Assembly: GCA_030603745.1 (NCBI GenBank)
Contig: JAUVXE010000007.1
Coordinates: forward strand, 43,392 to 107,391
DNA from: Coriobacteriia bacterium
Lineage (GTDB): Bacteria > Actinomycetota > Coriobacteriia > Anaerosomatales > SLCP01
Direction: 5' to 3'
Length of the DNA stretch: 64,000 nt
Of this stretch, positions 13,642 through 59,093 are shown piece by piece (positions within the stretch are counted from its first letter, which is position 1; each line of letters opens with the position of its first letter). The position numbers and the translations under genes were made by a program. Under the pieces are notes generated by a model. The model saw nothing but the letters and a program-made list of their open reading frames with translations. It searched no databases and was not told the origin of the DNA.

Positions 13642-13646
13642 ACCTA

Positions 13647-18345: not shown

Positions 18346-18420
18346 TCATCTGTCTCGCCTCCCTTACCCCGTACACCGATGGGACGGACCCCATTGCCGG
18401 GAGGTCCGCCACAGCACCAG

Positions 18421-18530: not shown

Positions 18531-18576
18531 TCCATTTTCACGGTCCGCGGGACGTTGCCGGTCGATCCCGGGACCC

Positions 18577-20245: not shown

Positions 20246-21256
20246 TCAGTCTCTCAGGCGTTCGACGGCCGCCGAGGCGGTCTCGTCGTTCGGGTCGATC
20301 TCGAGCACCTTGCGCCACGTCACGAGCGCGGACTCCGGGTTCCCGAGCTCCTCGTGCAGCTCGGCGGCGATGCGACCCGCCTCCGCGAGGCCCCGGTCGA
20401 GGGCGAACGCGATGCGAGCCTCGGCAAGGGCGCCTTCCGGGTCGGCGGGGCGCAGCGAGCGGGCGCGCTCCAGGCGCTCGGTCGCGCTTCCCTCGGCGGC
20501 GATCTTCGCGAGCTCGTCGCGGGGCTCGTCGCGGCCGGGTGGCGCGTGGTCCGCCGAGGTGCGGAAGTGCTCGGCGGCGCCGGCGATGTCGCCCTCCTCG
20601 AGCAAGAGCAGGCCGAAGTCGTAGTTCGCCTCGGGCATGATCGGGTCGAACATGATGGCGTTCTGCAGGTAGAGGCGCTGATTGGAGTCCGAGCCGAGGC
20701 GCCCGTAGGCGACCGAGAGCGCGTAGTGCGTGTCCGAGGCGCTCCGGCGGATCCGCAGCGCCTCGCGCAGATAGGCGACGGCGTCCTCGTAGCGGCCGAG
20801 CTCGATGTAGGTCACGCCGAGCTGGTAGTAGGCGACCTCGAGGCGGGTGTCGAGCATCGCGTACTCGCTGCCCCCGAGCTGGTCGATGACGGTGAGCCAG
20901 TACTCCTCGGCGGTCTCCCACTCGCCCTGGTACATCGCGACCAGCGCGAGGCCGGAGAGCGCGCTCGGATGGTCGGGGTGGATCTCGAGCGCGGCGTTGA
21001 ACTGCTCGACCGCCTCGCGCAGCCGGCCGGACGCCGCGAGGGCCTCGGCGAGCAGGAGACGGAGCTCCGCGTCGTCAGGGTTCTCGCGGACGGCCTCGAT
21101 GAGGTTGTCGACCGCACGCGACGCCGGCTGCGCACGGCGTTCCTGCAGCTGGTAGGCGGTCACCGTGTAGGCGAGGTAGATGAGTGCGACGAGCAGCAGG
21201 GCGACGACGGACTTGAGCGCCACGTCGAGCCAGCGTATGTCGGATCCGAATCTCAC
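20246..21256 (-). CDS. Membrane-anchored TPR-repeat protein
   Basis: 336 aa with an N-terminal TM (VVALLLVALIYLAYTV). It contains multiple TPR-like A/L/Y-rich 34-mers, for example AEALAASGRLREAVEQFNAALEIHPDHP and YQLGVTYIELGRYEDAVAYLREAL. Confidence 0.8.
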   Translation of the reverse strand: MRFGSDIRWLDVALKSVVALLLVALIYLAYTVTAYQLQERRAQPASRAVDNLIEAVRENPDDAELRLLLAEALAASGRLREAVEQFNAALEIHPDHPSALSGLALVAMYQGEWETAEEYWLTVIDQLGGSEYAMLDTRLEVAYYQLGVTYIELGRYEDAVAYLREALRIRRSASDTHYALSVAYGRLGSDSNQRLYLQNAIMFDPIMPEANYDFGLLLLEEGDIAGAAEHFRTSADHAPPGRDEPRDELAKIAAEGSATERLERARSLRPADPEGALAEARIAFALDRGLAEAGRIAAELHEELGNPESALVTWRKVLEIDPNDETASAAVERLRD

Positions 21257-21306: not shown

Positions 21307-22902
21307 CTAGAACCGCATGTCGGTATGGCAGCGGCGACACAGCTGTGAACCGGGCCAGGGCGCGATCTGGATGTTGCGGAGATCGAGCGCGCCGTGGCAG
21401 TCATAACAGATACGCAAGTCGTGTGCCTGAGTCTCGAACTGGTGCACACCTACATCACGAACACGCGCGATCGTGAAGCCGACGTGGCAGTCGTCACAGA
21501 TGTAGGGACGGCCCACGCGCTCTTCGACCTCGAAGTGCACGGCGTGGGTGACGAGCGCCATGTTCTGGATGTCGGTAGGCGGTTCGGTGCGCATCTCCTC
21601 GTGGCAGTCGACGCAGTTGGGCTGGAGGAGCTCGGTGCTCCGCAGGCCCTGGTGGTGGCACTCCTGGCACGACGCGCGGTCGGTGTGGCAGACCTTGCAG
21701 TCGTCGCTCGGGTAGCCGTTGGCCGCGTGCCGCGCGAGCCAGTCGGTCGGGTGCGGCATGGGCGTCTGATGGCACCGCTCGCACGACGCCGAGGTATGGC
21801 AGATCGAGCACGCCCCTTCCCCGCCGAGGAACCCGGCCCCGTGCTCCTGCATCCACTCGGGCGTCAAGTGGTCGTCGGGGACGATCTGCTCGCTCGTGGA
21901 GCCGTCGGCCAGCACCCGCTCTCCCCGGTGACACTCCGAGCACAGCGACGACGCGTGGCACATGGTGCACTCGATGATCTTCTCGTTGGCCGGCTCCGCG
22001 TGCTCCCGGGCGATGAACGCGGGCGTGTGGTCGGCCGGCATGAGCTCGAAGTCGGCGGTGTGGCAGGCGAGACACTCCTCGGTGGCCACCTCGCCCTGGG
22101 CGGCGTGCTGGAGGCTGTGGCAGCGGTAGCACGAGAGCATGTCGGGGATGACGGTCCCGTCGGGGCTGTGGGGGAACGACTCGTGGCACGCCTGGCACCG
22201 GTAGTCGCGCGCGATGTGGACGCCGTGCGTGAAGATGAGGCCGGGCTGCTCGCCCGCGTCGATGTCCGGGTGGCAGAAGACGCACTGTCCCATCGTCGCC
22301 TCGCCCGTGGGGTCGACGGTGACCGACGGCCGCGGCTCGGGCACGGGGATCGTGCGCAGGTAGACCGGGGGCACGGGCGCGGTGTCGAGCCCGAGCTCGC
22401 GGTGGCAGGAGTCGCAGTCGAGGCGCGCGTCGTGGCAGAGCATGCACTCGTTCGTGCCGCCCCGCTCCACAGCGAGCGCGTGGGGCTCCTCGGCCCAGGT
22501 CTCGACGTGGGTCGCGGGCCTGAGCTCGAAGGCGGGCGTGTGGCAGTCCTCGCACGTGCCGGTCGCCAAGATGCCCTGGGGGCCGTGCACGAGGCCGTGA
22601 CAGGCGAAGCAGGTCTGCATCGGCGGGCTGTAGGTGTTGCCCGCCTCGTGGGCCGGGCGCACGTGGCACGACGTGCACGCGACCGTGAGGTGCGCCCCGT
22701 GGCTGAAGATGAGCCCGGGGGAGCGGGACTCGGCGATACGCGCGTGGCAGGCGGCGCAGTTCGACGCCCTGACCTCGGCGGTCAGGTCGATCTCACCCGT
22801 GGTCTCGCGGCCGATGCCGGAGAGCGGGCCCGCAAAGGCGAAGGCGGTCGCCAGGAGGACGACCGCCGCGCCTGCTATGAGAGCCTTGCGCGTGCGCTGC
22901 AT
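21307..22902 (-). CDS. Membrane-anchored 20-heme c-type cytochrome built from repeated multi-heme modules
   Basis: 531 aa with 20 CxxCH motifs by my count. Four are closely paired doublets (CMLCHDARLDCDSCH, CTMCHASSLCSECH, CSICHTSASCERCH, CKVCHTDRASCQECH). An N-terminal anchor or signal is present (ALIAGAAVVLLATAFAFA). Confidence 0.9.
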   Translation of the reverse strand: MQRTRKALIAGAAVVLLATAFAFAGPLSGIGRETTGEIDLTAEVRASNCAACHARIAESRSPGLIFSHGAHLTVACTSCHVRPAHEAGNTYSPPMQTCFACHGLVHGPQGILATGTCEDCHTPAFELRPATHVETWAEEPHALAVERGGTNECMLCHDARLDCDSCHRELGLDTAPVPPVYLRTIPVPEPRPSVTVDPTGEATMGQCVFCHPDIDAGEQPGLIFTHGVHIARDYRCQACHESFPHSPDGTVIPDMLSCYRCHSLQHAAQGEVATEECLACHTADFELMPADHTPAFIAREHAEPANEKIIECTMCHASSLCSECHRGERVLADGSTSEQIVPDDHLTPEWMQEHGAGFLGGEGACSICHTSASCERCHQTPMPHPTDWLARHAANGYPSDDCKVCHTDRASCQECHHQGLRSTELLQPNCVDCHEEMRTEPPTDIQNMALVTHAVHFEVEERVGRPYICDDCHVGFTIARVRDVGVHQFETQAHDLRICYDCHGALDLRNIQIAPWPGSQLCRRCHTDMRF

Positions 22903-33682: not shown

Positions 33683-34795
33683 TCATCGGTCTCCTCGCAC
33701 CCTGACCCGCACCGCCGAGGCCTTGAACACGACCTGCACGAACGAGCCCGCCTCGAGTCCCAGCTCGCGCACCGAGGCGCGCGAGACACGCGAGGCGAAC
33801 GGACTGCCCGCGACGTCGATCGTCATGTGGTGCATGGCCCCCCACGACTGCACCTCGGTGACCGTGCCTGCGAAGCGGTTGCGCGCGGTCGACTGCGGGA
33901 TCTCCGCGTCGCCCTCGAACAGGAGCACGTCCTCCGGACGCACGCCGAGGAGCACCGGGGTCCCGACCGCCTCCGAGCCGGCCGCGAAGACGACCGCCCC
34001 GCCGATGTCGACCCCCACGAGCCCCTCGGCCGAGGAGACGACCTCGCCCTCGAGCGGCTCCCCCGCGCCGAGGAAGGTCGCGGTCCAGGCGTCGGGCGGC
34101 AGCCCGGTGATCTCGTCGACCGGGCCGCTCGCGACCGCGACACCGTCGCGCAGGATCATCATGGTGTCGGCGACCGCCATCGCCTCGTTCTGGTCGTGCG
34201 TGACGTAGAGCGTGGTCATCGACTCCTCGCGGATGATCCGCGCGAAGTCCTGGGCGAGCCGGCCTTTGATGAGCGGGTCGAGCGAGGAGAGCGGCTCGTC
34301 GAGGAGGAGCACCCGCGGTCGCAGCACGAGCGCGCGAGCGAGCGCGACCCGTTGCGCCTCGCCGCCGGAGAGCGTGAGCGCCGAGCGGTCCTCCCATCCC
34401 GCGAGCCCCACCCGCTCGAGCGCCTCGGCGACCGCGCTCCGCCGTGCCCCGGAGAGCATGCGGCGGAGCCTCAGGCCGTAGGAGACGTTGTCGGCGACGG
34501 TGCCCTTGAACAGGTACGGACTCTGGAACGCGGCCGCCATCTGAAGGCGGGCCGCCTTGTCGCGATGCGTGACCTCGCGCCCGTCGAGCAGGACGGTGCC
34601 CTCGTCGGCCGGCTCGAGCAGGCCGAGGATCGCGAGCAGCGTCGACTTGCCGGCACCGGAGGGGCCGAGCAGCGCGAGCGTCTCGCCCGGCTCGATGCGC
34701 ACCTCGGCCACGTCGACGACGGTACGCTTGCCGTAGGTCTTGCGGATCCCCGTCGCCTGCAGCGAGATGCCGGCGGGTGTGGTTCGCGTGGTCAT
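33683..34795 (-). CDS. tupC: Tungstate/molybdate ABC transporter ATP-binding protein with C-terminal TOBE-like domain
   Basis: 370 aa with Walker A (GPSGAGKST), signature motif (LSGGEAQRVALARAL) and Walker B (LLLDEP). An OB/TOBE-like tail ends VRVRVRG. Confidence 0.8.
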   Translation of the reverse strand: MTTRTTPAGISLQATGIRKTYGKRTVVDVAEVRIEPGETLALLGPSGAGKSTLLAILGLLEPADEGTVLLDGREVTHRDKAARLQMAAAFQSPYLFKGTVADNVSYGLRLRRMLSGARRSAVAEALERVGLAGWEDRSALTLSGGEAQRVALARALVLRPRVLLLDEPLSSLDPLIKGRLAQDFARIIREESMTTLYVTHDQNEAMAVADTMMILRDGVAVASGPVDEITGLPPDAWTATFLGAGEPLEGEVVSSAEGLVGVDIGGAVVFAAGSEAVGTPVLLGVRPEDVLLFEGDAEIPQSTARNRFAGTVTEVQSWGAMHHMTIDVAGSPFASRVSRASVRELGLEAGSFVQVVFKASAVRVRVRGDR

Positions 34796-34796
34796 C

Positions 34797-35504
34797 TCAG
34801 CTCCTCTCGAACCGCTCGTTCGAGTGCTGGTACCACGTGAGGAACCCGTTCATCGCGAACGTGATGGTCATGAGGATCAGTCCGAGCGCGAGCGCGAGGC
34901 CGAAGTCGCCCTTGCGCGACTCCTGCACGATCGCCGTGGTGAGCACGCGGGTCTGCCCCTCGATGTTGCCGCCGACCATCATGACGGCACCGACACCGCG
35001 CACCACGGCGCCGAACCCGCTCGCGACAGCCGCGAGCACGCCCAGGCGCGCCTCCCTCAGCGCGAGGAGGGCCTCTTGGACCCTCGATGCGCCGAGGGAG
35101 CGCGCCTGCAGCCGAAGCTTGTACGGCACCGACGCCACGGCTGCGGCGGTCAGGCCGGCGATGATGGGCGCGGAGATCAGGGTCTGCGCGATCGACATCG
35201 CGTCCTTCGTGTAGAGCAGGCCGAGGAAGCCGAGCGGACCCTGGCGAGAGAGGAACATCATCACGACGAGGCCGATGACCACCGGGGGCACGGCCATCGC
35301 GGTGTTCATGAGCGCGACGAGGAGCCTGCGTCCCCGGAACCGGGTCGCCCCCATGACGAAACCCATGGGAGCGCCGAGCACGACTCCGGCCGCCGTGGAG
35401 ACGATGGCGACCTCGAACGTCACCGCGATGACGTTCCAGAGCTCCGTCGAGCCCTGGAAGAGCAACGTGACCGCTGTGACGACTGCTTCGGCGAACACCT
35501 GCAT
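34797..35504 (-). CDS. tupB: Tungstate ABC transporter permease TupB-like
   Basis: 235 aa and polytopic. It has the TupB-like GAVMMVGGNIEGQTRVLTTAIVQESRKGDFGLALALGLILM. Confidence 0.75.
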   Translation of the reverse strand: MQVFAEAVVTAVTLLFQGSTELWNVIAVTFEVAIVSTAAGVVLGAPMGFVMGATRFRGRRLLVALMNTAMAVPPVVIGLVVMMFLSRQGPLGFLGLLYTKDAMSIAQTLISAPIIAGLTAAAVASVPYKLRLQARSLGASRVQEALLALREARLGVLAAVASGFGAVVRGVGAVMMVGGNIEGQTRVLTTAIVQESRKGDFGLALALGLILMTITFAMNGFLTWYQHSNERFERS

Positions 35505-35513
35505 GGCGTGGGC

Positions 35514-36395
35514 CTACTCCGCGTCGGGGATGAAGAGGGGCTCGCCGTACGTGTCGACCCCGAAGCTTTCGATGATCGCCTGGCCGGCGGGCGAGACGAT
35601 CCAGTCGGCGAAGGCCTGCGCGCCCTCGAGGTTGCCCGCGTCGGTCACGACGATCACGCCGTACGGGTTGAAGAGCGCCTCATCGCCCTCGACCGCGACC
35701 GTGAGGTCGAGGCGGTCCCGCATCGCCAGGTACGTGCCGCGGTCCGCCAGCGTGTACGCCCCGATCTCGGACGCCATGGTGAGCGCCTCGCCCATGCCCT
35801 GCCCGATCGAGAGGTACCACTCCCCGGCAGGCTCGATGCCCGCGAGCGACCAGAGCGAGCGCTCCGTGGTGTGGGTGCCGGAATCGTCGCCACGCGAGAC
35901 GAACACGTGCGCACCGCCGGCGATCGCGGTCAGGGCCGCCGCCGCGTCACTCGTGCCGGCGATGCCGGCGGGGTCCGCCTCGGGGCCGACGATCACGAAG
36001 TCGTTGTACATGACGTCGCGGCGCTCGACGCCATAGCCCTCGGCGACGAACTCCTCCTCCTGCGACCTGGCGTGCACGAGCAGGACGTCGGCATCACCTG
36101 CTCGGCCGATCTCGAGCGCCTGGCCGGTCCCGACCGCGACCACGCTCAGGCGGTACCGCGGATAGGCGTCCTCGAAGGCCGGGACCAGCTCGGTGAACAG
36201 GCCCGAGTCCTCGGTCGAGGTGGTCGAGGCGATGATCACGTTCGTGACCTCGACCTCTTCGACGGGTTCGGGTGCGGACGGCTCCTCGGCGACCTCTTCG
36301 GCGCCGCACGCGGCGAGACCGGATACGAGTACGAGCGAGAGGAGCAGTGCGAGTGCCTGCCGCTTGAGCGCGGGCGAAGGACGAAGCTCGAGCAT
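35514..36395 (-). CDS. tupA: Tungstate-binding lipoprotein TupA-like
   Basis: ATG 36395 follows an AAAGGAGA RBS. A lipobox is present (LVLVSGLAACG). TupA-type motifs: ASTTSTEDSGL, VGTGQALEIGRAGDADVLLVHA, SRGDDSGTHTTE, FNPYGV. Confidence 0.8.
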   Translation of the reverse strand: MLELRPSPALKRQALALLLSLVLVSGLAACGAEEVAEEPSAPEPVEEVEVTNVIIASTTSTEDSGLFTELVPAFEDAYPRYRLSVVAVGTGQALEIGRAGDADVLLVHARSQEEEFVAEGYGVERRDVMYNDFVIVGPEADPAGIAGTSDAAAALTAIAGGAHVFVSRGDDSGTHTTERSLWSLAGIEPAGEWYLSIGQGMGEALTMASEIGAYTLADRGTYLAMRDRLDLTVAVEGDEALFNPYGVIVVTDAGNLEGAQAFADWIVSPAGQAIIESFGVDTYGEPLFIPDAE

Positions 36396-36402
36396 GTATG
36401 GG

Positions 36403-36510
36403 TCTCCTTTCCACCGGGAGGCGAGGAGGTTTCCCTTCCCCACCCTATCGGTCCGGGACCCGTGGCCCGCTCGGCTGGGCTGTAGGGCATCCGGACTCGG
36501 AGATATGTGG
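36403..36510 (-). promoter_or_regulatory. Moco/Tuco-type riboswitch aptamer candidate in the tupA leader (RBS-sequestering)
   Basis: The mRNA reads CUCCGAGUCCGGAUGCCCUAC...CCGAUAGGGUGGGGAAGGGAAACCUCCUCGCCUCCCGGUGGAAAGGAGA-cccauac-AUG. The 3' strand of the closing helix (GGAGA) is the tupA Shine-Dalgarno. The ordered blocks match those at 18421..18530. Confidence 0.6.
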
Positions 36511-36532
36511 CCGCTGAAGCGACCGCACGAAG

Positions 36533-40687: not shown

Positions 40688-43600
40688 CTAGCCGACAGTG
40701 CGTGCGCGACGCCGCAGGGCGAGCCCTGCGATGGTCGCCGCGGCAGCCAGAGCGATGAGGCCGAGCAGGTTCCCTCCGGTGAAGGGCAGGAACGGCTCGT
40801 CGACATCGACGGTCACGCGCCACGTCGCACGGTCGTTATCGGGATTGTCATCGTCCGGGTGGGTCACGACGACCACGTTGTCGAGGATCGTCGTTCCTTC
40901 GGGCATGTCGTCCGCGACCTTGAGCTTGTAGGTGATGACGTGGTCCGTGCCGAAGACGAGCGGCCCGGGGAAGTTCCACGTGATCCGTCCGCCTGCGACG
41001 GTGCCACCGGCCGCATCCACGACGGTCAGGTACCGCTCGTCGAAGTCGTCGACGACCGTGTAGTCGTAGGCGGGGTCTCCGCCGACGTTCCTGACGGTCA
41101 CGGTGTAGGTGATGGTATCGCCGGGATCGGCGGTCGTGCGGTCACCGGACTTCTGCACCGCGAGGTCGGGCGGGAAGCCGAGGAACTCCTCGATGTCGAC
41201 GAACGCCTCGTCGGTATCGGAGACCTCATGGCCCCACTCGTCGGCCCCCGACGCCACCACGACGTTGAGGGTGGGCTCGAACAGCGCGGTCGTGGCCGTG
41301 AAGGTCTGCGACTCGCCCACGTCGAGCATCGCGATGGTCGCGATCACGCCGAGGTGGTCGTCTGAGACCAACACGTCATAGAGGGGCACGTCGCCCGTGT
41401 TCTCGACGACGAACGTGTAGGTCACGTCCTCGCCCTCGAACACGAAGTCGGCGCTGGCGGACTTGGTCACGGAGATGGCCGGGTTCACGACCCTCACGAA
41501 CGCATCGTCGGATGCGGTGAGCGTCTCCTCCCAGCTGATCTCACGAGACTCGTCGATCCAGCCGTAGTACGCCTCGACGGTGCCCACGTTGGGGGTGTCC
41601 ACGTCGATGGTCGTCGTCGCGGTCACGGTCCACTCGCCAAGCGGCGCCAGGAAGTCGCGCGTCCCGAGCGGGCCGAGCTTGTCGTCGACGAGCGACAGGT
41701 CGTAGAGCTCCGTGTCGCCGTCGTTGGTGATGACGAACGTATAGGTCACCATCTCGCCGGGCAGGACCACCTCGGGGTCGACCGTCTTGACGATCGAGAG
41801 CGCCGGGTTCAGGACCACGACCGTCTCATCGTCGCTGTCGTCGACCGGGTTGCCGATCGGGTCGTACCCGACCACGTCGGCGATGTTGGTGGTGGTCTCG
41901 TCGAGCATGGTGGTGTGGTCGAGCAGCTCCCATGCGCCCGGAGCGAGCTCGTCGATCGTGCCGATGAGACCGAGCTTGTCGTCCTCCACGCTGATCGCCG
42001 TCAGCGTCTCCTCGCCCGAGTTGGTGACCAGGTAGTAGTAGGTGACCTCCATGTCGGCGGTGACGCCGGTGAGATCGGCCTGCTTCACGACGCTGATCGC
42101 GGGCTTGAGGATGTCGACGAGATGCGTGTCGAAGGCCGTGACGGTCCCCTGCAGGATGTGCGTCCCGATGACGTCCGCGCGGTTAGGCAGCGGGTCCTCG
42201 TCATCGGCCATCACGGTGTAGGGGACGTCGAAGCTGTAGGTCGCTCCGGCGGCCAGGCTCGGGAGCGTCAGGTCGACGTCCAGGAGCGGGTCGGTGATCT
42301 TGACGTTGGTGAGCGTGTGGTCGCCGGTGTTCTCGACGGTGATCGTATAGGTGATCTCCTCGCCCACGTAGGCGTAGGCGGGACCGGTCTTGTCGATCGA
42401 GATGCCCGGATCGTAGACCGAGACCATCGCGGAGTCGGTGTCGTCGACCTTGGTCTGCAGCACGTCGTAGCCTTCGACGACGGCCGTGTTGGTCATCGTG
42501 GCGGCGGGGAAGTACGCAGGCGCGGTCAGCGTGACGACCTCACCGGGGGTGAGCATGCCGATCATCGAATCGAACTCGATGTCCGGGTCGTCGAGGAAGA
42601 CGCCGGTGAGCGTCTCCTCACCGGAGTTGGTGACCACGAAGGTGTAGACCACCGAGTCACCGAGGAGGATCGAGCCGGGGCTCACCGACTTCGCCAGGCT
42701 GATCGCGGGCTTGAGGATGTCGACGAGGTGCGAGTCGTCATCGGTCAGTGTCCCGTCGAGCAGGTCGGTCGCCATCACGTAAGCTGTGTTGGGCAGCGGA
42801 TCGGGATCGTCCGCCTGCACGGTGTAGGGCACGTCGATGACGTAGGGGACGTTCGGGGCCAGGGTCGGCAGCGTGACGTCCACGCCGAGCTTGGGGTCGG
42901 TGATCTTGACGCTGTAGAGCGTGTAGTTGCCCGTGTTCTCGACGGTGATCGTGTAGGTGATCTCCTCGCCCACGTAGGCGTAGGCGGGACCGGTCTTGTC
43001 GATCGAGATGTTCGAGTCGACGTAGAAGTTGCCGAAGTCGAGCCCGGTGATCGCGCTGCCATGCGCCACCACGATCGGGTTCGTCGGCGCGAGCGTCTGG
43101 TACCAGTCGTCCTGGAGGACCTCCGAGATCTGGTAGGAGCCCGGAAGCACGTTGACGAACGAGAAGCTCCCATCGGCGGCCGTGGTGGTCTGGGCGTAGA
43201 GCGTGCCGCCCTTGTGGAGGCGGATCGTCCAGCCGCCGAGACCCGGCTCGCCGGCGTCCTTGACGCCGTCGGCGTCGAGGTCGTGGAACTTCATGCCCGA
43301 GAGCGCCGAGGAGTAGGTGAACCTGTTGGTCAGGTTCGACTCGAGCGTCTCTGAGAGCATCTCGCTCCTGAGCAAGATGTCCTCTCCGCCGAAGCTCGCG
43401 TACCAGTCCGCCCGGGTGATCGTGGACCCGAAGGGCAGGTCGACCGATCCGGAGTAGGTGTTGTTCGGCCCGGCCGTCAGCGCGACATCGGGCTGTACGA
43501 CGCCTGCCACCCAGAAGCGGGCGAAGAACGTCGCGCCCTGCGGCGCGCCGGCGAACGTGAGCTCGAACGTCTTGGTGACGTCGGGACGGTAGTTGCCGAT

Positions 43601-44809
43601 GTAGCGAGTCAGGTTCTCGCCCGAGCCGAGCGTGAGGGCCATCGGAAGCACCGTGGCGGTCTCCCACCCCGGCTTGAGGGTCTCTGTCACCTCGAACGAG
43701 CCGGGAGGCAACGGCGAGAACACCACCTTGCCGTCCATGTCGGTCGTGCCGTGGATGTCCCACGAGTAGACGTCGTCCCCGCCGGTCGAGGTGAGACGGA
43801 AGTCCCACCCGGGCAGGAACTCGTTCTCCCCCGTGTCACGGACGCCGTTGCGGTTGGTGTCGTAGTACTTGTAGACCGTGACCGATCCGCTCGGCGCCTC
43901 GACGGCGGGAAGCGGGACGGTCTTGCGGCCGAGTCCCTCGATCTGCATGTTGCCCGGCGAGCCGGTGTAGGGTCCCCAGCCGTCTCGAGGCGGGTCCTGC
44001 TGGTTCCAGTAGATGGTGAGCGCCAGATGCGCGCGGAAGTAGATCACCGCGTACTGCCCTGCCGGGATGACGACCTGACCGCCGGCGATCGTGGTCAGGA
44101 GACCGGACGCGTCGACGCCGTACGCGCCGCCGACCGGCACGTCGTGCTGCGAGAGCGCGAGCGGTGACCAGCCAGGCTGCGGCACACGAGGGTCGCCCGT
44201 GGCGGGCTTGGTGCTCGTCAGGTAGTAGAGATAGTCCGTCGTCCGGTCGAAGTAGATGCCCTGGCCGGACTTGTAGTGGAACGCGTCCACGGAAAGCTCG
44301 GGGACAGTCACCTGTACGGCCTGTCCCTTGGTGTTGTCGATGATCAGACGGAACGGGACCCACTCGCCCTCCTGGTACGCCTGGAGGTTGCCTGTGGTCC
44401 AGCCCATGCTCTTGCGGACGCCCTCAAGGCTCACGTCGCCGCTCCCGATGTCGGAGAGGGTGACCTCTTCGGCGAGGGAGGCGAACGGTGCGGGGGCCGA
44501 GCGGGGCGCGGGAGCGGGCTCATCGGCCGGATCGGCCTCTGTCACCGCAGGCGGGTCTTCAGGGTCAGGAGCGGGCGCCGGGTCACCTTCAGACGGAGGC
44601 CCCTCATCCGCCGAGGGCGGTGCGGGCTCTACCGGTACTTCGAGGGGTGTCGCTTCGACCAGCCCCTCTGTCGCGCTCTCCTCGGCAAACGAAACGGGCA
44701 CCGATGTGCCGATGCCCGTGAACATCACGACAACCACGATGGTGAGGTATGTCGTGAACAGCCGGGAGAGCCATGACCGACGCTTCATGCTGCGTGCCAT
44801 CGCTCTCAT
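40688..44809 (-). CDS. LPXTG-anchored cell-surface protein with SdrD-B/Cna-B-like and multiple DUF11 (conserved repeat) domains
   Basis: The C-terminal sorting signal is LPFTGG + [18 protein letters not shown] + RRRARTVG. About eight DUF11-like units are present (e.g. [39 protein letters not shown]). SdrD-B-like units include [24 protein letters not shown] and [23 protein letters not shown]. I chose ATG 44809 (GGAAGGGG RBS) because the track start 44869 lies inside an upstream terminator U-tract. Confidence 0.85.
   Translation of the reverse strand: [1373 protein letters not shown]
42092..43010 (-). repeat. In-frame 606-bp tandem duplication inside the adhesin gene
   Basis: Anchor strings recur exactly 606 nt apart. 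gctgatcgcgggcttgaggatgtcgacgag occurs at 42092 and 42698. A 78-nt block at 42327..42404 matches 42933..43010 with a single mismatch. Confidence 0.8.
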
Positions 44810-44869
44810 CCCCTTCCGCTCCGTGGACACTCCACCTCCCCGCCTGCGGCGGAGTCGGTCGGGGTGCAT

Positions 44870-44909
44870 AGAAAAGACCGGCTCCGTCTGAAAACGAACG
44901 GGCCGGTCT
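44870..44909 (-). terminator. Strong intrinsic terminator upstream of the adhesin start
   Basis: The minus-strand RNA reads GAGACCGGCCCGUucguuuucagACGGAGCCGGUCUUUUCU. That is about 12 bp of GC-rich stem with one bulge, a 10-nt loop and a U-tract. Confidence 0.7.
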
Positions 44910-45095
44910 CACCACTGGCTCCCCGTCGCGTCGTTCGGTGACCGCACTGTGCTGCGACGGATCCATGCCTCCCGCGTCCAGCCTGCACGACTCGCAGGCC
45001 CGCGTCTGGGGATTGTGAAAGAGCGCCTCTCCAGCTACCTATGGGAGACTTTACCCGCTGGTCACGACGGCAGATGGGTGAAGGGCATCATCCAT

Positions 45096-51053: not shown

Positions 51054-52481
51054 GTGACGCCTGCGACGATCGTCTGGTTCCGGCGCGACCTGCGGTGCGC
51101 CGACAACGAAGCGCTCACGGCCGCGGCGGCCGCGGGCGGCGCGGTGGTCCCGGCGTTCGTGCACGCGTCGGGCGCCCCGGCGCGCGGCCATGGCGAGCGG
51201 GCGTGGCTCGATCACTCGCTCGCCTCGCTCGACGCGGGCCTGCGCGCGTGCGGCTCGCGCCTCGTGCTGCGCGAAGGAACGAACGCGGGCGACGAGCTCG
51301 CGCGCCTCGCCCGCGAGTGCGGGGCCTCGGCGGTCCACTGCACCCGCGACTGGTCGCCTGCGGGCCTCGCGACCGAGCGCGCGGCCGGCGAGCGGCTCGC
51401 CGAGACCGGGGTGCGGCTGGAGGTCTTCGAGGGCTCGCTGCTCGTGACCCCGGACTCGCTCTCGCCCGCATCGGGCAGTGGCGTGAGCGGCTACCGGGTC
51501 TTCTCGCCGTACTTCGCCGCGTGGGAGCGCGCATGGGCGCCGCACGCTCCCCTGCCGGCCCCCGTACGCCTCCGGGCGCCCGCGCGCTGGCCGTCCTCGG
51601 CGCCGCTTTCCGGACGGCGCTCGGGAGCGGACGGCGCCCCCGACCCCACGACGTGGTGGCGGCCCGGCGAGCCCGGCGCGGGGGAGCGGCTCGCGGCCTT
51701 CACCGACGGTCTCCTCGGCGGGTACGCGGAGGCGCGCGACGTGCCGGGGGTGGACGGGACCTCGCGGCTCTCGCCGCACCTCGCGTTCGGGGAGCTCTCG
51801 CCGCGCCAGGTCGTAGCAGCGGTGAGGGCCGCGGACGGCGGTGACGGCGCACAGGCCCGCGCGTTCGTACGCCAGCTCGCGTGGCGGGAGTTCGCGGCAC
51901 ACGTGGTCTGGCATCATCCGCGCTCCGGCGTCGAGCCGCTGCGGCCCGCGTTCGCCCGGATGCCGTGGCGAGACGATCCGGACGCGCTCGAGGCCTGGCG
52001 GCAGGGACGCACCGGACATCCGCTCGTCGACGCGGGGATGCGCCAGCTCGCGTCCACCGGCTGGATGCACAACCGCGTGAGGATGGTCGCAGCGTCGTTC
52101 CTCGCGAAGGACCTGCTCATCGACTGGACGCACGGCCTCGCGCACTTCGCCGACCTGCTCACCGACCACCACGAGGCCGCGAACGCGTTCAACTGGCAGT
52201 GGGTCGCGGGGTCCGGAGCCGACGCCGCACCGTACTTCCGCGTGTTCAACCCCGCGCTTCAGGCCACGCGCCACGACCCGGACGGCACCTACATCCGCGC
52301 CTGGGTCCCCGAACTCGCCGAGGCGCCCGCGCGCTGGATCGCCCGGCCGTGGGAGCTGCCCGCCGAGGAGGCACGGCGCGCGGGTGTCGCGATCGGTTCG
52401 ACCTATCCCGCGCCGATAGTCGACCACGTCGAGGCACGCCGGCGGGCGCTCGCGGCGTACGCGTCGATCCGCGGCGGGTGA
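51054..52481 (+). CDS. phr: Deoxyribodipyrimidine photolyase (class I CPD type)
   Basis: GTG 51054 follows a GAGGAGG RBS. Motifs: IVWFRRDLRCADNEAL, SRLSPHLAFGELSPRQ, the FAD-binding region GWMHNRVRMVAASFLAKDLLIDW, and NWQWVAGSGADAAPYFRVFNP. Confidence 0.9.
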   Translation: MTPATIVWFRRDLRCADNEALTAAAAAGGAVVPAFVHASGAPARGHGERAWLDHSLASLDAGLRACGSRLVLREGTNAGDELARLARECGASAVHCTRDWSPAGLATERAAGERLAETGVRLEVFEGSLLVTPDSLSPASGSGVSGYRVFSPYFAAWERAWAPHAPLPAPVRLRAPARWPSSAPLSGRRSGADGAPDPTTWWRPGEPGAGERLAAFTDGLLGGYAEARDVPGVDGTSRLSPHLAFGELSPRQVVAAVRAADGGDGAQARAFVRQLAWREFAAHVVWHHPRSGVEPLRPAFARMPWRDDPDALEAWRQGRTGHPLVDAGMRQLASTGWMHNRVRMVAASFLAKDLLIDWTHGLAHFADLLTDHHEAANAFNWQWVAGSGADAAPYFRVFNPALQATRHDPDGTYIRAWVPELAEAPARWIARPWELPAEEARRAGVAIGSTYPAPIVDHVEARRRALAAYASIRGG

Positions 52482-52602
52482 CCGGGGCCGGCCGCGACCG
52501 CGCGGTCGGCCGCGACCCTGAGGGCGGACCGCTGACACGAGGCCGGGGACCGGGACGACGACGGGCGGCCCCGTGTCGGGACCGCCCGTCGGCACGTTCG
52601 CA

Positions 52603-52699
52603 TGGCGGAGGCGCGTGCGAATCGAACACACCCGGGACGCTCTTCACGCCCCACTACGGTTTTGAAGACCGCGGAGCCCACCAGGACCCATCCGCCTCC
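52603..52699 (-). tRNA. selC: tRNA-Sec (anticodon UCA), selC
   Basis: 97 nt: GGAGGCGGAUGGGUCCUGGUGGGCUCCGCGGUCUUCAAAACCGUAGUGGGGCGUGAAGAGCGUCCCGGGUGUGUUCGAUUCGCACGCGCCUCCGCCA. The anticodon loop is CU-UCA-AA. It has a 6-bp D-stem (GGGUCC/GGGCUC), a long variable arm, a T-loop UUCGAUU and an encoded CCA. It lies 76 nt downstream of selB. Confidence 0.9.
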
Positions 52700-52774
52700 G
52701 CAGCGGATTGTCCTGGTGGCGCCGCCGAGTGTCAATCAGGGCGCACGCCCCGCGGCGTGGTCGCGCTCTCGGGC

Positions 52775-54682
52775 TCAGCCCTTCCGCAGGACCCGGAGAT
52801 CCCCCTCGCGGCGGGTGAGCCCGGTCGCGTCGAAGTGCTCAAGGAGCGGGATGGCGTACTTGCGGCTCACGCCGAGGACGTCACGCAGCTCGGCGGCGGT
52901 CGCGCCCTCCCGCTCACGCAGGAACGCCGTCATCCGCTCGCCGGCGGCGGTGACGGAGGCCGCGTCGAAGTGCAGGTCGGGACCGAGCCGGACCACCGCG
53001 CCCTCGGCGACCAGACGCGTGAGCACCTTGCGCGCGACACCGGCGTCGACGCCTGCCTCCTCGGCCCATCCGGCCACGGTCTTGGGGGCGAGCGCGTCGC
53101 GCGCGACGAGCGGCGCGAGCGCGTCGTAGGCGGCCTGCTCCTCGGCGAGCGCCGAGACCGCGGCCGCGGGGTGGCGGACCTGGCCGCGCTCGGCCACGGC
53201 CGTACCGCGCGCGGCGGCGACCTCGAGGAGCGCGTCGAAGGTCTTGGGCGCGAGCCGGCGGTCGACCCGGTCGCGCAGCGCGAGCGTCGCGATGCCGGTG
53301 GCCTTCGGCTCCGCCTCGTGGAACGCGAGCAGCTCGCGCTCGATGGCGGCGGCCAGCCCGTCGAGCGCCTCGGCGGTCACGAAGAGCGTCTCGCCGCCGG
53401 CCTTCACCCGCTCGAGGCCGGACGCCCTGTTGAGCTCGTCGGCGACCTGGGCTCGCACGACGCCGAGGGCCGCCGCGACCTCGGCCGACGACATCGGGAT
53501 CCCGCGGGCGGCGAGCAGGCCCACGCTCGCCCCCGACAGGTCGCCCGCGAGCAGCGCCTCGAGGAGTTCGCGCTCGTGGGGCTTGGGCCTCGAGCGGCGC
53601 GGCGGCATCACGTCGAGCACCGTGCCGCCGCCGATGGTGTAGACCGGCGAGTACGACCGCACGATGAAGCGGTCGCCGTAACGGGGAGCGAGCGGCTCCT
53701 CCAGCCGGACCTGCGCGAGCGAGGAGCCGCCCGGCGCGAGCTCGTCGCCGTCCATGAGCAGCACGCGCCCGAGCACCTCCCGCGTCCCGTGGTGCACGTG
53801 CACGCGGGTGCCGGAGGTGAACGACTCGGTGGCCCCGGGCTCGCCGAGGAAGGTGAAGCGCGCGTCGAACCGGTCGGTGACCGAGAGCGTCCCGGGCGCG
53901 GCGATGACGTCCCCGCGCGCGATCTCGTCGCGGTCGAGCCCGGCTATGTTGAGCGCCACGCGCTGGCCGGCGCTCGCCTTCGCGACGGCCTCCGAGTGCA
54001 CCTGCACGCCGCGGACGCGGCCCTCGCGTCCGGCGGGCAGGACCTCGACCGGGTCGTCCTTGGCGGCCTGGCCGGACCACAGCGTGCCGGTGACGACCGT
54101 GCCCGCGCCCGCGATCGTGAACACGCGGTCGACCGGCAGGCGCATCGGGAGGTTCGCCTGGCGCGCGGGCGCCTCGCCCGCGATCGCGTCGAGCGCGGCG
54201 AGCAGGTCGGGGATGCCCGCGCCGGTCGCGGCGGAGACCGGCACGACCGCGGCGCCCTCGATCGACGTGCCCTCGAGCAGCGTTCCGACCTCCTCGGTCA
54301 CGAGTTCGATCCAGTCCGGCTCGGCGAGGTCGGCCTTGGTGAGCGCCACCACCCCCCGGTCCACGCCGAGGAGATCGAGGATCGCGAGGTGCTCGCGGGT
54401 CTGCGGCATGACGCCGTCGTCCGCGGCGATCACGAGCAGCACCACGTCGACGCCGGTCGCGCCGGCGACCATGTGGCGCACGAACCGCTCGTGGCCGGGC
54501 ACGTCGACGACCCCCATCGTCCGCCCGCTCGGCAGCTCGAGGCGCGCGAACCCGAGCTCGATGGTGATGCCGCGCTCTTTCTCCTCGGCGAGACGATCGG
54601 GGTCGGTGCCGGTGAGCGCCTTGATGAGCGTGGACTTGCCGTGGTCGATATGGCCCGCGGTGCCGAGGACGAGCGAGGGCAT
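52775..54682 (-). CDS. selB: Selenocysteine-specific translation elongation factor SelB
   Basis: 635 aa with GTPase motifs ([26 protein letters not shown]). A long C-terminal winged-helix extension, typical of bacterial SelB, follows. Confidence 0.95.
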
Positions 54683-54688
54683 GCGCGC

Positions 54689-56110
54689 CTACGCCCCCTC
54701 GCCGAGGACGGCCGCGATGCGGGCGGCGACCTCGGGCTCCTCGGCGGGGCCGAGGGTACGTGGGTCGAGGAGGAGGCGGTCGTCCTTGATGCGGGCGACG
54801 ACGGACGGCTCGCCGAGACGCAGCCGCCGCTCGAGCTCGACCACGCTCACCGAGCGCGGCAGCACGCGTACGACGGTGGTCGGGATGTCGGCCATCGGCA
54901 GCGCGCCGCCGCCGGCGCGGGAGACGTCCGGTGCGGTGTCGACGTCGGCCGCCGCTGTCGCGATCGCATCGGCGCCGCCGCACGCGTCCGCGATGCGCGC
55001 CGCGAACGCCGAGGCGCGCGCGGCGACCTCATCGGCGGGCATGGTGAGCATGCGGAGGGTGGGGATCTCGGCGATGGCGACCGACTCGTCGGCGTAGGCC
55101 CGCAGCGTGACCTCGAGGGCGGCGAGCGTCAGCTTGTCGAGGCGCAGCGCGCGCGCCATCGGATGCTGCTTGAGGGCGCGGATCACGTGGTCGCGACCCA
55201 CGAGGATGCCCGCCTGCGGTCCCCCGAGCAGCTTGTCGCCCGAGCACGACACCAGGTCGGCGCCCGCGGCGATCGACTCGCCCACGGTGGGCTCGTAGGG
55301 CAGCCCGTAGCGGCGCAGGTCGACGAGCACGCCCGAACCCTGGTCCTCGAAGACGGTCACGCCGTGGCGCGCCCCGAGCTCCACGAGCTCGGCGACGCCG
55401 ACCTCCTGCGTGAAGCCGACCACGCGGAAGTTGCTCGAGTGCACCTTGAGGATCATGCCGGTCTCGGGCGTGATGGCGTTCTCGTAGTCGCGCAGGTGCG
55501 TCTTGTTGGTGGCGCCGACCTCGACCATCGTCGCACCCGACTCGCGCATGATGTCCGGGATGCGGAACGACCCGCCGATCTCGACGAGCTGCCCGCGGCT
55601 GACGATCGCCTCCCTGCCGCGGGCGAGCGCGGCGAGCGCCATCATGACCGCGGCGGCGTTGTTGTTGACGGCCATCGCCGCCTCGGCGCCGGTGAGGCGA
55701 CAGAGCAGCTCCTCGCAGTGGACGTGGCGGCTCCCCCGCTCGCCGCTCTCGACGTCGAACTCGAGGGTCGAGTAGGAGCGGGCGACCTCGGCGACCGCCT
55801 CGGCGGCGCGCTCGGAGAGGACCGAACGGCCGAGGTTCGTGTGCACCACGATGCCGGTCGCGTTGATCACCCGGCGCAGGCTGCGGCGGGACTTGAGCGC
55901 GAGCCGCGCGGCGACCTCGCCGAGGAACGCCTCGGCATCGAAGCGGGAGGACTCATCGGCGACGAGACGCGACCGCGTGTGGTCGAGGACCTCGCGGACC
56001 GCCTCGAGCACGAGCGCGCGGGGGTGCTCGCCGAGCATGCCGGCGGCCTCCGCGTCGCGGAGCGCGTCGTCGACCTTGGGGAGCTGCCGGAGTCTCGCCT
56101 GGGTGTCCAT
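54689..56110 (-). CDS. selA: L-seryl-tRNA(Sec) selenium transferase SelA
   Basis: 473 aa with [18 protein letters not shown]...[11 protein letters not shown]...[17 protein letters not shown]...[12 protein letters not shown] (PLP lysine). Confidence 0.95.
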
Positions 56111-56222
56111 GCGCGTGATTCTACCTGTTACGGGCGGTGACCGCGACGGCCGACCGCCCGGGCGCCCGGCGGGGGCGTCGGGCGGGGCGGCGTCGGGCGG
56201 GCCTTCGTCAAGCGGGCCTTCG

Positions 56223-56561
56223 TCAGGCGATCGTCACCACGTCATCCGCGCCGAGGAGCGCGTCGACCGCGTCGGCCATCGCGCCGACCTCGCCCACCGC
56301 GAGCGCGTCGGTCAGGCCGAGGTAGTCAAGACAGGTGCCGCACGCCTTGACCGCCACACCCCCCTGGACCGCCAGCCGCAGGTCGTCGAGCACCTCGGAG
56401 CCCTCGCACGCCAGGCGCACGCCCTCGTTCATCAGCATGATCGCCCGGGGTGGCTCACCCGCGCGCGCGACGGAGTAGACGAAGTTGCGCATGAGGACCC
56501 GCCCGAGCTCGGCGTCCGAGCTCCCGATGCGGTCGGTGAGGATGAGCACGCGCTTGGCCAT
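56223..56561 (-). CDS. DsrE/YedF-C-terminal-like sulfur/selenium-transfer protein
   Basis: 112 aa: MAKRVLILTDRIGSSDAELGRVLMRNF...IMLMNEGVRLA...VKACGTCLDYLGL. This looks like a DsrE-fold selenium-metabolism YedF-type domain. It sits between selD and selA. Confidence 0.65.
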   Translation of the reverse strand: MAKRVLILTDRIGSSDAELGRVLMRNFVYSVARAGEPPRAIMLMNEGVRLACEGSEVLDDLRLAVQGGVAVKACGTCLDYLGLTDALAVGEVGAMADAVDALLGADDVVTIA

Positions 56562-56690
56562 GGCGTCCTCCTGCCGTCGTGCGAGCGCACGGCCTTCGCC
56601 CGGGCAGCCCCGGTGAGATAAGTGCGAGTCGCGTTGCCGATTCAGCGGAGATTATACCGGAGCGCCGCCGCGGCGACACCCGCGCCCGAC

Positions 56691-57722
56691 TCAGCGAACG
56701 AACACCGCTCCCGGCTCCCCCGCGAGCATCCGCCCGATCACGGCAGCCGGCTCGCCGCGCCGCTCGAGGGCGCCGACGAGGTCACCGGCACGCTCCGGCG
56801 GCAGCGCCATGAGCAGACCGCCGCTCGTCTGGGGGTCGCAGAGGACCTCTTTCCACTCGGTCTGGAGCCCGTCCCACTCGGCGAACGGGTCGAGGTGGGT
56901 GATGACGTCGATCGTCCTGCCGGGCCGGACGCCCCGCCGCGCGTAGTCGAGCGCGCCCTCCCAGACCGGCACGGCCGCGGTCTCGATCTCGACGGCGAGC
57001 CCGCTGCCGAGCGCCATCTCCCGCGCGTGGCCGAGGAGACCGAAGCCGGTGACGTCGGTGGCCGCGTTCACGCCGACCTCCACCATCGCCTCGGCGGCCG
57101 CCGCGTTCAGATGCGCCATCGAAGCGATGACCTCGCGAAGCGTCTCGGCGGTCTCGAGGCCGGCCTTGAGCGCGGTGTTCATGATGCCCACGCCGATGCG
57201 CTTGGTGAGCACGAGCGCGTCGCCCTCCCGCGCGCCGACGTTGCGCACGACCGCGTCGGGGGCCGCCTCCCCCATGACCGAGAGGCCGAACTTGGGCTCC
57301 TTGTCGTCGATCGTGTGCCCGCCGACGACGAGCACGCCCGCCTCGGCACACGCGTCGGAGCCGCCCTGCAGCACGCGCGCGACGATCGCCGGGTCCATCG
57401 AACAGGGGAACGCGAGCAGGTTCATCGCGGTCAGCGGCCGACCGCCCATCGCGTAGATGTCGGAGAGCGCGTTGGCCGCGGTGATCCTCCCGAAGTCGTA
57501 CGGGTCGTCGACCATGGGCGTGAAGAAGTCGACCGTGAGCAGCACGGCACGGTCACCGAGCAGGTAGACCGCCGCGTCGTCGCTCGTCTCGAAGCCGACC
57601 ATGAGCCGTTCCGACGCTCCGGGAGCGATCGCGGAGAGCACGTTCGCGAGGTCCTCCGGACCCCACTTCGCCGCTCAACCGGCCTTGCTCGAGAGTTCTG
57701 TGAGCCGAACGGGTCCCGTCAC
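56691..57722 (-). CDS. selD: Selenide, water dikinase SelD; itself a selenoprotein (in-frame TGA at 57675..57677)
   Basis: Track ORF 56691..57641 lacks the N-terminus. Extending the frame upstream through the TGA gives V-TGPVRLTELSSKAG-U-AAKWGPEDLANVLSAI, the SelD glycine-rich active-site loop with Sec in place of Cys. GTG 57722 lies 3 nt after the upstream gene stop. The rest of the protein is SelD-like (DDAAVY, FFTPMVDDPYDFGRITAANALSDIYAMGG, VGGHTIDD). Confidence 0.9.
57648..57664 (-). promoter_or_regulatory. Candidate SECIS hairpin for the selD TGA
   Basis: The mRNA reads UGA GCG GCG AAG UGG GGU CCG GAG GAC CUC. GGGGUCC/GGACCUC forms a 7-bp stem starting 11 nt after the UGA. The triloop is very small, so the exact fold is uncertain. 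Confidence 0.45.
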
Positions 57723-57725
57723 CGC

Positions 57726-59093
57726 CTACAACTCCTTCAGGTGCTCGTAGAGCGAATCGTCGGGGAAGGGCTCGGTGGGCAGGGCGAACAGGAAGCCCTG
57801 GCCGTAGCGGACGCCGAGCTCGCGAACGGTCGCGAGCTCCTCGGCGGTCTCGATGCCCTCGGCGATGAGCTTGACGCCCACGCTCTCGGCGAACTGGACG
57901 AGACTGTGGATGAGCGAACAGCGCACCTCGTCGGCGTCGCAGTTGCGCACGAGCGAGATGTCGACCTTGAGCCACTCGGGATGCACCTCGGCGAGGCACT
58001 GCAGCGAACCGTAGCCGGCACCGGCGTCGTCCACCGCGATGGAGAAGCCGAGCGCCCGCAGGTACTCGAGCGTGGCCCGAAACGTCGTGAAGTCCGAGAT
58101 CGCGGTCCGCTCGGTGAGCTCGAGCACGATGCGGTCGGGCGTGACGCTGGAGTTGGCGAGCAGGGTACCGGTCATCGCCTCGCGCAGTTCGGGGTCGGCG
58201 ACCGCGTCGGGTTCGATGTTGATGAAGATCGTGCGCCCCTCGGGCAGCGTGTCGGCGGCCTGGACCGCCTTCTTGCGGCAGAGCCGCTCGAGCCGCATGA
58301 CGAGGTCGGCGTCGTAGGCGACCTTGAACAGCTTGTCGGGGCGCTCGAACTCGCTCTTCTCCGGCCCGCGCGAGAGTGCCTCGTAGCCCACGACGCTCAT
58401 GTCGCCCAGGTCGAACACCGGATGCACGAGCGTGCGGACCTCCTCGGCGTCGATGATATCGCGCAGGCGCCGCTTGCGCGTCTCCGCGTCTACCGCCTCG
58501 CGCGTGGCCGAGTCGTGCAGCGCCGCGTCGAGCCCCGCATGCACGAGACGCTCGAGGCGCGCGTTGGGGTCGTGCGTGATCGTGGCCGCGCCCACGTAGC
58601 AGCCGAACTTGCGGAAGACCTCGGGCTCGACCTGCTCGCCGAGGAACGCGCGGATGCTCTCCTCGACCCGCTGCACCACGAGCTGGCGCGAGTCGGCGTC
58701 CATGCGCAGCGACGCGCGGGGCGGCGAGAGGACGACCACGAACGAGTTACCGGAGATCATGATCTCGGCGATGATGTCGGCGTCGCGCAGCACCGTGCCG
58801 GTGATCGACTCGAGCGCCCGGGCGACGTGGCGCATGACGTCGTCGAAGACCTTCCACCCGTAGATCTCCTCGATCTTGGAGTAGCGGACCACGTTCACGC
58901 AGAGCAGCGTGACCTCGTTGCGCTCCTCGAGCAGCACCTGGATGCGGGGGAAGAGCAGCGGGGTGGTAGGCAGGCCGGTGACCGGGTCGAAGAGCAGGCG
59001 CCGGACCTCGGGGTGGGACTCGATCACATCGGCGAACTCGAGCCACGACTCCAACAGGAAGTTGTGGCCGTCTCCATGGTGCGAGGATTGCAC
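57726..59093 (-). CDS. Degenerate-GGDEF + EAL domain protein (putative c-di-GMP phosphodiesterase)
   Basis: 455 aa. The GGDEF-like domain has ISGNSFVVVL in place of the GG(D/E)EF site. The EAL domain motifs are VGYEALSRGP, INIEP, ELTER, IAVDDAGAGYGSLQ and KVDISLV, with a C-terminal stretch QGFLFALP. Confidence 0.85.
   Translation of the reverse strand: MQSSHHGDGHNFLLESWLEFADVIESHPEVRRLLFDPVTGLPTTPLLFPRIQVLLEERNEVTLLCVNVVRYSKIEEIYGWKVFDDVMRHVARALESITGTVLRDADIIAEIMISGNSFVVVLSPPRASLRMDADSRQLVVQRVEESIRAFLGEQVEPEVFRKFGCYVGAATITHDPNARLERLVHAGLDAALHDSATREAVDAETRKRRLRDIIDAEEVRTLVHPVFDLGDMSVVGYEALSRGPEKSEFERPDKLFKVAYDADLVMRLERLCRKKAVQAADTLPEGRTIFINIEPDAVADPELREAMTGTLLANSSVTPDRIVLELTERTAISDFTTFRATLEYLRALGFSIAVDDAGAGYGSLQCLAEVHPEWLKVDISLVRNCDADEVRCSLIHSLVQFAESVGVKLIAEGIETAEELATVRELGVRYGQGFLFALPTEPFPDDSLYEHLKEL

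Follow-up and report, generated by a model that had tools for sequence, protein, structure and literature searches.

A 64,000-nt stretch of contig JAUVXE010000007.1 (assembly GCA_030603745.1, positions 43,392 to 107,391 of the forward strand; hereafter the window), whose host is a high-GC uncultured Coriobacteriia-like actinobacterium, carries on its minus strand a cluster of genes for the synthesis and insertion of selenocysteine (Sec). We conclude, with a probability of about 0.9, that the cluster is a complete and ordinary bacterial Sec-insertion machinery in which selD, the selenophosphate synthetase gene, is itself recoded at an in-frame TGA, and that the hairpin found 3' of this codon is most likely a Sec insertion sequence (SECIS). 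The order selD, DsrE/YedF-like gene, selA, selB and tRNA-Sec on one strand, originally predicted from the letters and their ORFs (open reading frames) only, is borne out by profile scores above curated cutoffs. The components, in coordinates of the window, are the following.

52603..52699, minus strand: tRNA-Sec (selC), 97 nt, anticodon UCA, CCA end encoded (ARAGORN and Rfam RF01852)
52775..54682, minus strand: selB, Sec-specific elongation factor, 635 aa (TIGR00475 and Pfam)
54689..56110, minus strand: selA, selenocysteine synthase, 473 aa (TIGR00474 and Pfam)
56223..56561, minus strand: short YedF-like gene, 112 aa (TIGR03527, DsrE-like half only)
56691..57722, minus strand: selD, selenophosphate synthetase, 343 codons including a predicted Sec at codon 16, GTG start (TIGR00476)
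57675..57677, minus strand: in-frame TGA of selD (codon 16), predicted to be read as Sec, aligned with Cys17 of E. coli SelD
57646..57666, minus strand: candidate SECIS hairpin of selD (fold and frozen synonymous sites)
57732..57738, minus strand: Shine-Dalgarno sequence GAAGGAG of selD (direct sequence reading)

The ORF list truncates selD at a GTG codon at 57641, as the original prediction stated. Upstream of this codon the frame continues through the TGA (57677..57675) to a GTG start at 57722, ahead of which AAGGAG (within GAAGGAG) is found at a distance of 9 nt, and reads V-TGPVRLTELSSKAG-*-AAKWGPEDLANVL. Translation of the extension restores the glycine-rich loop that had been predicted, SSKAG-U-AAKWGP. 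SelD scores 374.3 bits against TIGR00476 (cutoff 125) and 335.1 bits against NF002098 (cutoff 299) in NCBIfam, and features the Pfam domains AIRS (PF00586) and AIRS_C (PF02769). In the alignment with E. coli SelD (3U0O, residues 4-340) the TGA matches Cys17 and K19 matches Lys20, which are the catalytic residues of the glycine-rich loop in the E. coli enzyme; the TGA also aligns with the Cys in 'SSGCAAKVGPGDL' of PDB chain 2YYE/2ZOD. The native SelD proteins of Aquifex aeolicus (PDB 2ZOD/2YYE) and Haemophilus influenzae carry Sec.

Orthologs were monitored by scanning one genome per species, which yielded 80 loci. Forty-seven of them belong to uncultured Coriobacteriia or Actinomycetota bins, come from independent assemblies and show 61-82% identity. 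The upstream extension is conserved in these orthologs, a TGA being found at codon 16 of selD in 47/47 Coriobacteriia-type loci, always within the N-terminal motif 'RLT..S.K.G-*-AAK[WY]GP'. At the same position, 32 Bacillales homologues have a Cys codon (TGT or TGC), and one (Planococcus) a TGA. Among the 47 loci, the two Ala codons right after the TGA make use of every one of the four synonymous codons, which indicates that the loci have diverged well and that the TGA is held by selection.

The sequence GGGGUCC-GGA-GGACCUC, at 57664..57648, can fold into a hairpin, which grows to 9 bp at 57666..57646. The 9-bp form, GUGGGGUCC-GGA-GGACCUCGC, has a free energy of -13.3 kcal/mol, and its stability is in the top 0.53% of the 21-nt windows across the sel genes. 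The hairpin had been correctly spotted, but its distance from the TGA is 10 nt and not 11 as counted originally, the 9-bp form starting at 8 nt. The loop begins 20 nt past the U of UGA and its first base is a G; bacterial SECIS models (bSECISearch) require such a UGA-loop distance, and a loop starting with G. The core GGUC/GACC is invariant in an alignment of 44 sequences folded with RNAalifold. The hairpin resides in the codons W-G-P-x-D-L of selD, and three of these are frozen at synonymous sites in the 47 Sec-type loci. The Gly codon is GGT in 47/47 (GGT makes up 15.6% of the Gly codons in the rest of these genes), the Pro codon CCG in 47/47 (54% elsewhere), the Asp codon GAC in 46/47 (77% elsewhere). 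The 32 Cys-type homologues use, at the same positions, all four Gly codons, all four Pro codons, and either GAC (15) or GAT (17) for Asp. Because the freezing is specific to Sec-type genes, it points to a constraint at the RNA level tied to the UGA, as a SECIS predicts, and is good indirect evidence for the candidate element. The invariant GGUCCG...GACC core with its frozen codons provides a clean natural example of RNA constraint inside coding sequence.

The lone Sec-type SelD among the Cys-type Bacillales homologues is that of Planococcus chinensis (L079 7034). The gene features the same hairpin, GGUCC-UGA-GGACC, in the codons G-P-E-D-L, and selA, selB and tRNA-Sec are located close to selD on the opposite strand.

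Five points weigh against this interpretation of the selD locus. Compensatory changes are missing in the hairpin among the 44 aligned sequences, in which RNAalifold finds only 4 invariant pairs, so that covariation neither proves nor disproves an RNA structure; synonymous-site freezing was therefore used in place of covariation as evidence for an RNA element. The 71-nt region following the TGA is not unusually stable for its GC content (z = -1.47). The hairpin overlaps the strongly conserved residues WGP.DL, hence part of its conservation is at the protein level, third-position freezing only being RNA-specific. The related loci are kin, and as such phylogenetically non-independent. Lastly, Sec at codon 16 is a prediction from sequence.

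The long frame would also be translated if the UGA were read through without Sec, by a near-cognate Trp or Cys, or by Cys-tRNA-Sec when selenium is absent, giving rise to a Cys-type or inactive protein. In other systems some decoding of such codons by means other than Sec is known. It would offer a way of bootstrapping the feedback loop described below, and a minor fraction of such products is compatible with the sequence. As an account of the locus it is nonetheless improbable, given the complete Sec machinery next to selD and a hairpin with a canonical distance, a G-starting loop and frozen synonymous sites. TGC and TGT are one mutation off, yet they are found in 0/47 relatives, which argues that Sec itself is selected.

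Even less credit can be given to the hypothesis that the TGA is a true stop, selD starting at GTG 57641 or at ATG 57602 and the upstream 15 codons being untranslated, or part of a short upstream ORF. The ORF from GTG 57641 exists, and automated gene calls do favor short products. The source contig's own selD call is 303 aa long (the ATG form), the 316-aa GTG form being not in the protein collection, and in the public collection the best 120 relatives of this SelD have lengths of 302-318 aa, cover 85-92% of the full-length protein and are all truncated at the N-terminus. Yet uniform truncation is what a standard gene caller is expected to produce at any Sec codon. Products of a downstream start would be deprived of the glycine-rich loop bearing the catalytic Cys/Sec and Lys, and would not yield the N-terminal peptide TGPVRLTELSSK; moreover, the 15 upstream codons are conserved at the protein level along with the TGA in all 47 loci, and a good Shine-Dalgarno sequence is found ahead of GTG 57722. 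The N-terminal truncation of SelD at the Sec codon is thus a clade-wide annotation artefact, which leaves the public SelD entries of the clade without their catalytic loop. Correction of these entries is the main value of the analysis, as inferring selenium use or SelD function from truncated forms would mislead.

It is very unlikely that the TGA arose from an error in sequencing or assembly, or marks a pseudogene: the window does come from a metagenome-type assembly, its exact proteins being found on one NCBI contig and in a Logan assembly, but the same TGA recurs in 47 independent assemblies, reading frame and high GC content at third codon positions (GC3) are intact on both its sides, and the downstream genes are intact. 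An alternative genetic code, with UGA as a sense codon genome-wide, was also considered and rejected, because UGA is otherwise a normal stop, selB and selD themselves both terminating at TGA.

Translation of selD through a Sec codon demands the other components of the pathway, and these are all encoded next to it. SelA scores 593.4 bits against TIGR00474 (cutoff 267.9) and is made up of the domains SelA (PF03841) and Se-cys_synth_N (PF12390). SelB scores 376.9 bits against TIGR00475 (cutoff 242.25) and includes GTP_EFTU (PF00009), Beta-barrel_SelB (PF25461), SelB-wing_2 (PF09106) and SelB-wing_3 (PF09107). The RNA at 52603..52699 is called SeC, with anticodon tca, by ARAGORN, and matches Rfam RF01852 over its full length (72.1 bits vs. 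a gathering score of 47), with a 6-bp D stem and a long variable arm. The predicted identity of the tRNA (UCA, 97 nt) is thus confirmed by two methods, neither of which assigns a different one. The tRNA gene is indeed downstream of selB, but the gap measures 75 nt, one less than originally reported. This and the one-base difference in the hairpin distance are the sole points in which the original description was off, and both are trivial.

The tRNA-Sec sequence is almost identical in four related loci (L009, L010, L027 and L031). Besides these, only a partial match was seen next to selB in relatives (L004), so the selB-tRNA linkage is not clade-wide. In bacterial tRNA-Sec molecules the acceptor and T stems form a 13-bp helix (8/5). 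The window tRNA can be drawn with a 5-bp T stem and with Watson-Crick pairs at seven positions of the acceptor stem. At the 8th position two purines are mismatched, in this tRNA as in those of the same four loci (G.G, A.G, A.A, G.A), and the canonical 8/5 helix is therefore made up here by seven Watson-Crick pairs and a mismatch.

What the sequences show directly is the identity of the genes, the conservation of the TGA and of the hairpin, the freezing of synonymous sites in the latter, and the conserved promoter boxes described below. The mechanism which may connect them is modelled, step by step, on the established E. coli Sec pathway, with Sec insertion itself, the binding of SelB, the sites of transcription start and the role of the YedF-like protein being deduced. 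tRNA-Sec would be charged with serine, and SelA would convert Ser-tRNA-Sec into Sec-tRNA-Sec, using selenophosphate provided by SelD. SelB-GTP would deliver Sec-tRNA-Sec to a ribosome paused at a UGA followed by a SECIS hairpin; the selD hairpin is a putative SelB target of this kind. Codon 16 of selD, a UGA which occupies the catalytic Cys/Sec position of the glycine-rich loop near the N-terminus, would be recoded via the short hairpin. SelD synthesis would consequently need its own product, a positive feedback loop, and in the absence of selenium translation of SelD would stop after 15 residues.

The autocatalytic dependency pointed out originally is real in logic, and is a long-known property of Sec-type SelD; the idea that such proteins make Sec synthesis self-dependent or autoregulated dates back to the 1990s. 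To call the dependency absolute would go beyond what a 64-kb window can show, as a second, Cys-type selD paralogue may lie elsewhere in the genome.

The sel cluster is probably not one operon, and is made up by several transcription units. The most likely units are selD, which would be coupled to the EAL gene ahead of it; yedF; selA and selB, on a leaderless mRNA; and selC, with its own promoter. The relevant features are listed below.

57726..59093, minus strand: EAL-domain gene with a weak GGDEF match (Pfam)
56651..56656, minus strand: TATAAT hexamer, candidate -10 box in the 129-nt selD-yedF spacer (motif search)
56118..56123, minus strand: TAGAAT, putative -10 box 7 nt ahead of the selA ATG (conserved across loci)
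52707..52735, minus strand: TTGACA-17 nt-GACAAT, promoter-like element of tRNA-Sec, ending 8 nt before the tRNA 5' end

The GTG of selD is found 3 nt past the stop of the EAL gene (57726..57728), with the Shine-Dalgarno sequence of selD inside the 3' end of the EAL gene, and the two genes are adjacent in about 30 of the 47 related loci.

The TATAAT reported ahead of the yedF-like gene is at the position given, and is the sole one in the 64 kb (1 vs. 0.26 expected), but is conserved in about 7 of 37 relatives only. It is kept, mostly as GCGCTATAATC, in loci with long spacers (L003, L005, L025, L037, L041, L046 and L049), and missing in relatives in which selD and yedF are 18-60 nt apart. An acceptable -35 sequence was not found for the hexamer.

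The start of selA is different. A Shine-Dalgarno sequence is missing before selA in the window locus, and a TANNNT ending 6-8 nt upstream of the start codon is found at 36/37 selA starts, an SD-like (Shine-Dalgarno-like) core at 1/37. Among control starts, the figures are 0/30 and 20/30 for selB, and 0/37 and 34/37 for yedF, respectively. The pattern suggests that the selA-selB mRNA is leaderless, with a transcription start predicted at the A of the ATG (56110). Leaderless mRNAs are common in Actinobacteria. The leaderless reading of selA fits the observation that 11 relatives host, between yedF and selA, inserts of unrelated DNA 0.5-2.3 kb in size, whose ORFs look unrelated and for the most part run on the opposite strand. 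No selenium gene seems to recur among these inserts, which were not run against family libraries. The fold of the yedF-selA spacer is not significant in DNA with 72% GC (z = -0.70), and intrinsic terminators were not found in the 52300..58000 region.

In the same region TTGACA-17-GACAAT is the sole sigma-70-like match (0.1 expected). TTGACA and GA(C/G)AAT are conserved in all 4 related loci in which tRNA-Sec follows selB, and the element may act as the tRNA-Sec promoter.

We consider it doubtful that these traits make the Sec machinery of the clade an unusually wired one, with a fixed Sec-SelD relying on an invariant minimal SECIS, translational coupling to an EAL gene, which encodes a cyclic di-GMP (c-di-GMP) phosphodiesterase, a leaderless selA-selB mRNA, and a half-YedF in place of the two-domain protein as partner in selenium handling. 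If the features reflected regulation, for example a control of Sec synthesis by c-di-GMP, or one specific to leaderless messages, they would amount to a new mode of regulating a known system. Independently of this, the conserved promoter of a putative leaderless selA represents a small, testable addition to what is known of the expression of actinobacterial sel genes.

The yedF-like gene, flanked by selD and selA in the majority of the 47 related loci, is preceded by the Shine-Dalgarno sequence GGAGGA. The protein scores 113.2 bits against TIGR03527, a marginal match (cutoff 110) which involves profile positions 87-194 of 194 only, and 21.6 bits against Pfam DsrE, under the cutoff of 22.7. It thus corresponds to the DsrE-like half, with a CGTC (CGxC) motif. 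The N-terminal SirA/TusA-like (CPxP) half is missing, as profile positions 1-86 are unmatched and the spacer upstream is just 129 nt long, and a separate small SirA/TusA-like CPxP protein is not encoded in the 64-kb window. Nearly all of the best 120 homologues listed are 112 aa long (range 110-124), and several carry the JGI or NCBI label 'selenium metabolism protein YedF'. The short protein is probably an accessory in the handling of selenium or sulfur.

A second gene with a predicted Sec codon resides 35.1 kb from tRNA-Sec. It encodes a formate dehydrogenase (FDH)-like protein with a twin-arginine translocation (Tat) signal.

14522..18157, minus strand: FDH-like molybdopterin oxidoreductase alpha subunit, 1211 codons, Tat signal, in-frame TGA at 17522..17524
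17479..17519, minus strand: SECIS-like hairpin after the FDH-like TGA, 8-bp upper stem, loop GGUCU (fold)

The protein features the motifs EHQARI-U-HSSTV (Sec-His) and RRQFLK (Tat), and GC3 is 0.87-0.92 on both sides of the TGA. Folding of 17460..17527 gives -28.2 kcal/mol (z = -2.84). A Fer4_11 subunit gene (13647..14507) is located downstream. The original prediction of a Sec-FDH 35 kb away stands as to the Sec codon and the distance. The identity of the enzyme needs a qualification. The best family matches are formate dehydrogenases, but all scores are below curated cutoffs (419.6 bits vs. 814.2 for TIGR01553, the FDH-N alpha subunit; 385.8 vs. 1400 for NF041513, an actinobacterial FDH; 309.8 vs. 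666 for TIGR01591), and FDH-like is the safe label. Its similarity to FDH models is split into four separate stretches, and this long protein may represent a divergent subfamily with insertions.

Additional internal Sec codons were searched for in the window by monitoring GC3 continuity across in-frame TGAs, a scan which passed the FDH-like gene only; Sec codons closer than about 30 codons to the end of a gene escape the scan, and selD is for this reason not listed by it. The TGAs at 1035..1037 and 20246..20248 were rejected as Sec codons because they are stops between adjacent same-frame genes, the remaining candidates because they are on non-coding frames.

Two molybdenum/tungsten cofactor (Moco) riboswitches, each scoring 56.3 bits, were detected on the minus strand. 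One (18406..18535) precedes the FDH-like selenoprotein operon, and the second (36388..36514) is upstream of an ABC transporter (33683..36443; PBP_like_2, permease, TOBE ATPase), which is probably specific for molybdate or tungstate. Multihaem cytochrome c genes at 12454..13650 and 21307..22902, both on the minus strand (Paired_CXXCH, Cytochrome_C7, MtrC/MtrF-like), flank the FDH-like operon, a hint that formate oxidation may be coupled to extracytoplasmic electron transfer in the host. A c-di-GMP-II-GAG riboswitch (44894..44981, minus strand, 60.5 bits) is found directly upstream of a gene (40688..44869, minus strand) encoding a 1393-aa, repeat-rich surface protein (DUF7507, DUF11, SdrD_B, CARDB), and suggests that this adhesin is under c-di-GMP control.

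Sec-type SelD and the arrangement of the sel cluster are textbook, long documented traits. As in Sec-type SelD/SPS2 proteins, the window SelD has a UGA at the same position of the N-terminal loop, the AIRS and AIRS_C domains, and the same logic of self-dependence, and it shares with the Aquifex aeolicus 2YYE chain the local motif G-[U/C]-AAK-x-GP-x-DL. It differs from E. coli SelD in having 'UAAKW' in place of 'CGCKI', with the second Cys absent, and from other Sec-type SelDs in belonging to a clade whose 47 sampled genomes retain Sec without exception, whereas public protein sets hold truncated forms only. Four components with the same domain make-up, including the C-terminal winged-helix SECIS-binding domains of SelB, are found in the E. 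coli sel system. The E. coli SelD, in contrast, is Cys-type, and the E. coli sel genes (the selAB operon, selC, selD) are dispersed, whereas those in the window lie together, are joined by an additional YedF-like gene, and include an apparently leaderless selA.

The candidate SECIS of selD is, like those of E. coli fdhF and fdnG, a stem-loop in coding sequence just 3' of the UGA. It differs from them because the loop is very small (GGA; CGGGU in relatives), a bulged U is not demonstrable, and the 4-bp core alone is common to all relatives.

According to Lin et al., SirA/TusA-like and DsrE-like domains are jointly the YedF signature (PMC5322559). The protein in the window has the same C-terminal DsrE-like half with CGxC as YedF (TIGR03527), and its gene adjoins selD (motif as in PMC5322559). 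It differs from two-domain YedF by missing the N-terminal SirA/TusA-like CPxP domain, the 112-aa form being a populous family itself.

According to Mariotti et al., Sec is encoded by 19% of prokaryotic SelD genes, and its position is in every case the one observed here (PMC4561486). SelD and FdhA are the two commonest bacterial selenoproteins, at least one of them being present in every Sec-using organism, and SelD is listed as a selenoprotein in Actinobacteria such as Rubrobacter, and in Symbiobacterium (PMC1794560). The window holds the two commonest selenoproteins, the second as an FDH-like protein, along with the standard machinery. What appears to be specific to the clade is modest, namely a Sec-SelD kept without exception, a half-YedF, and an apparently leaderless selA.

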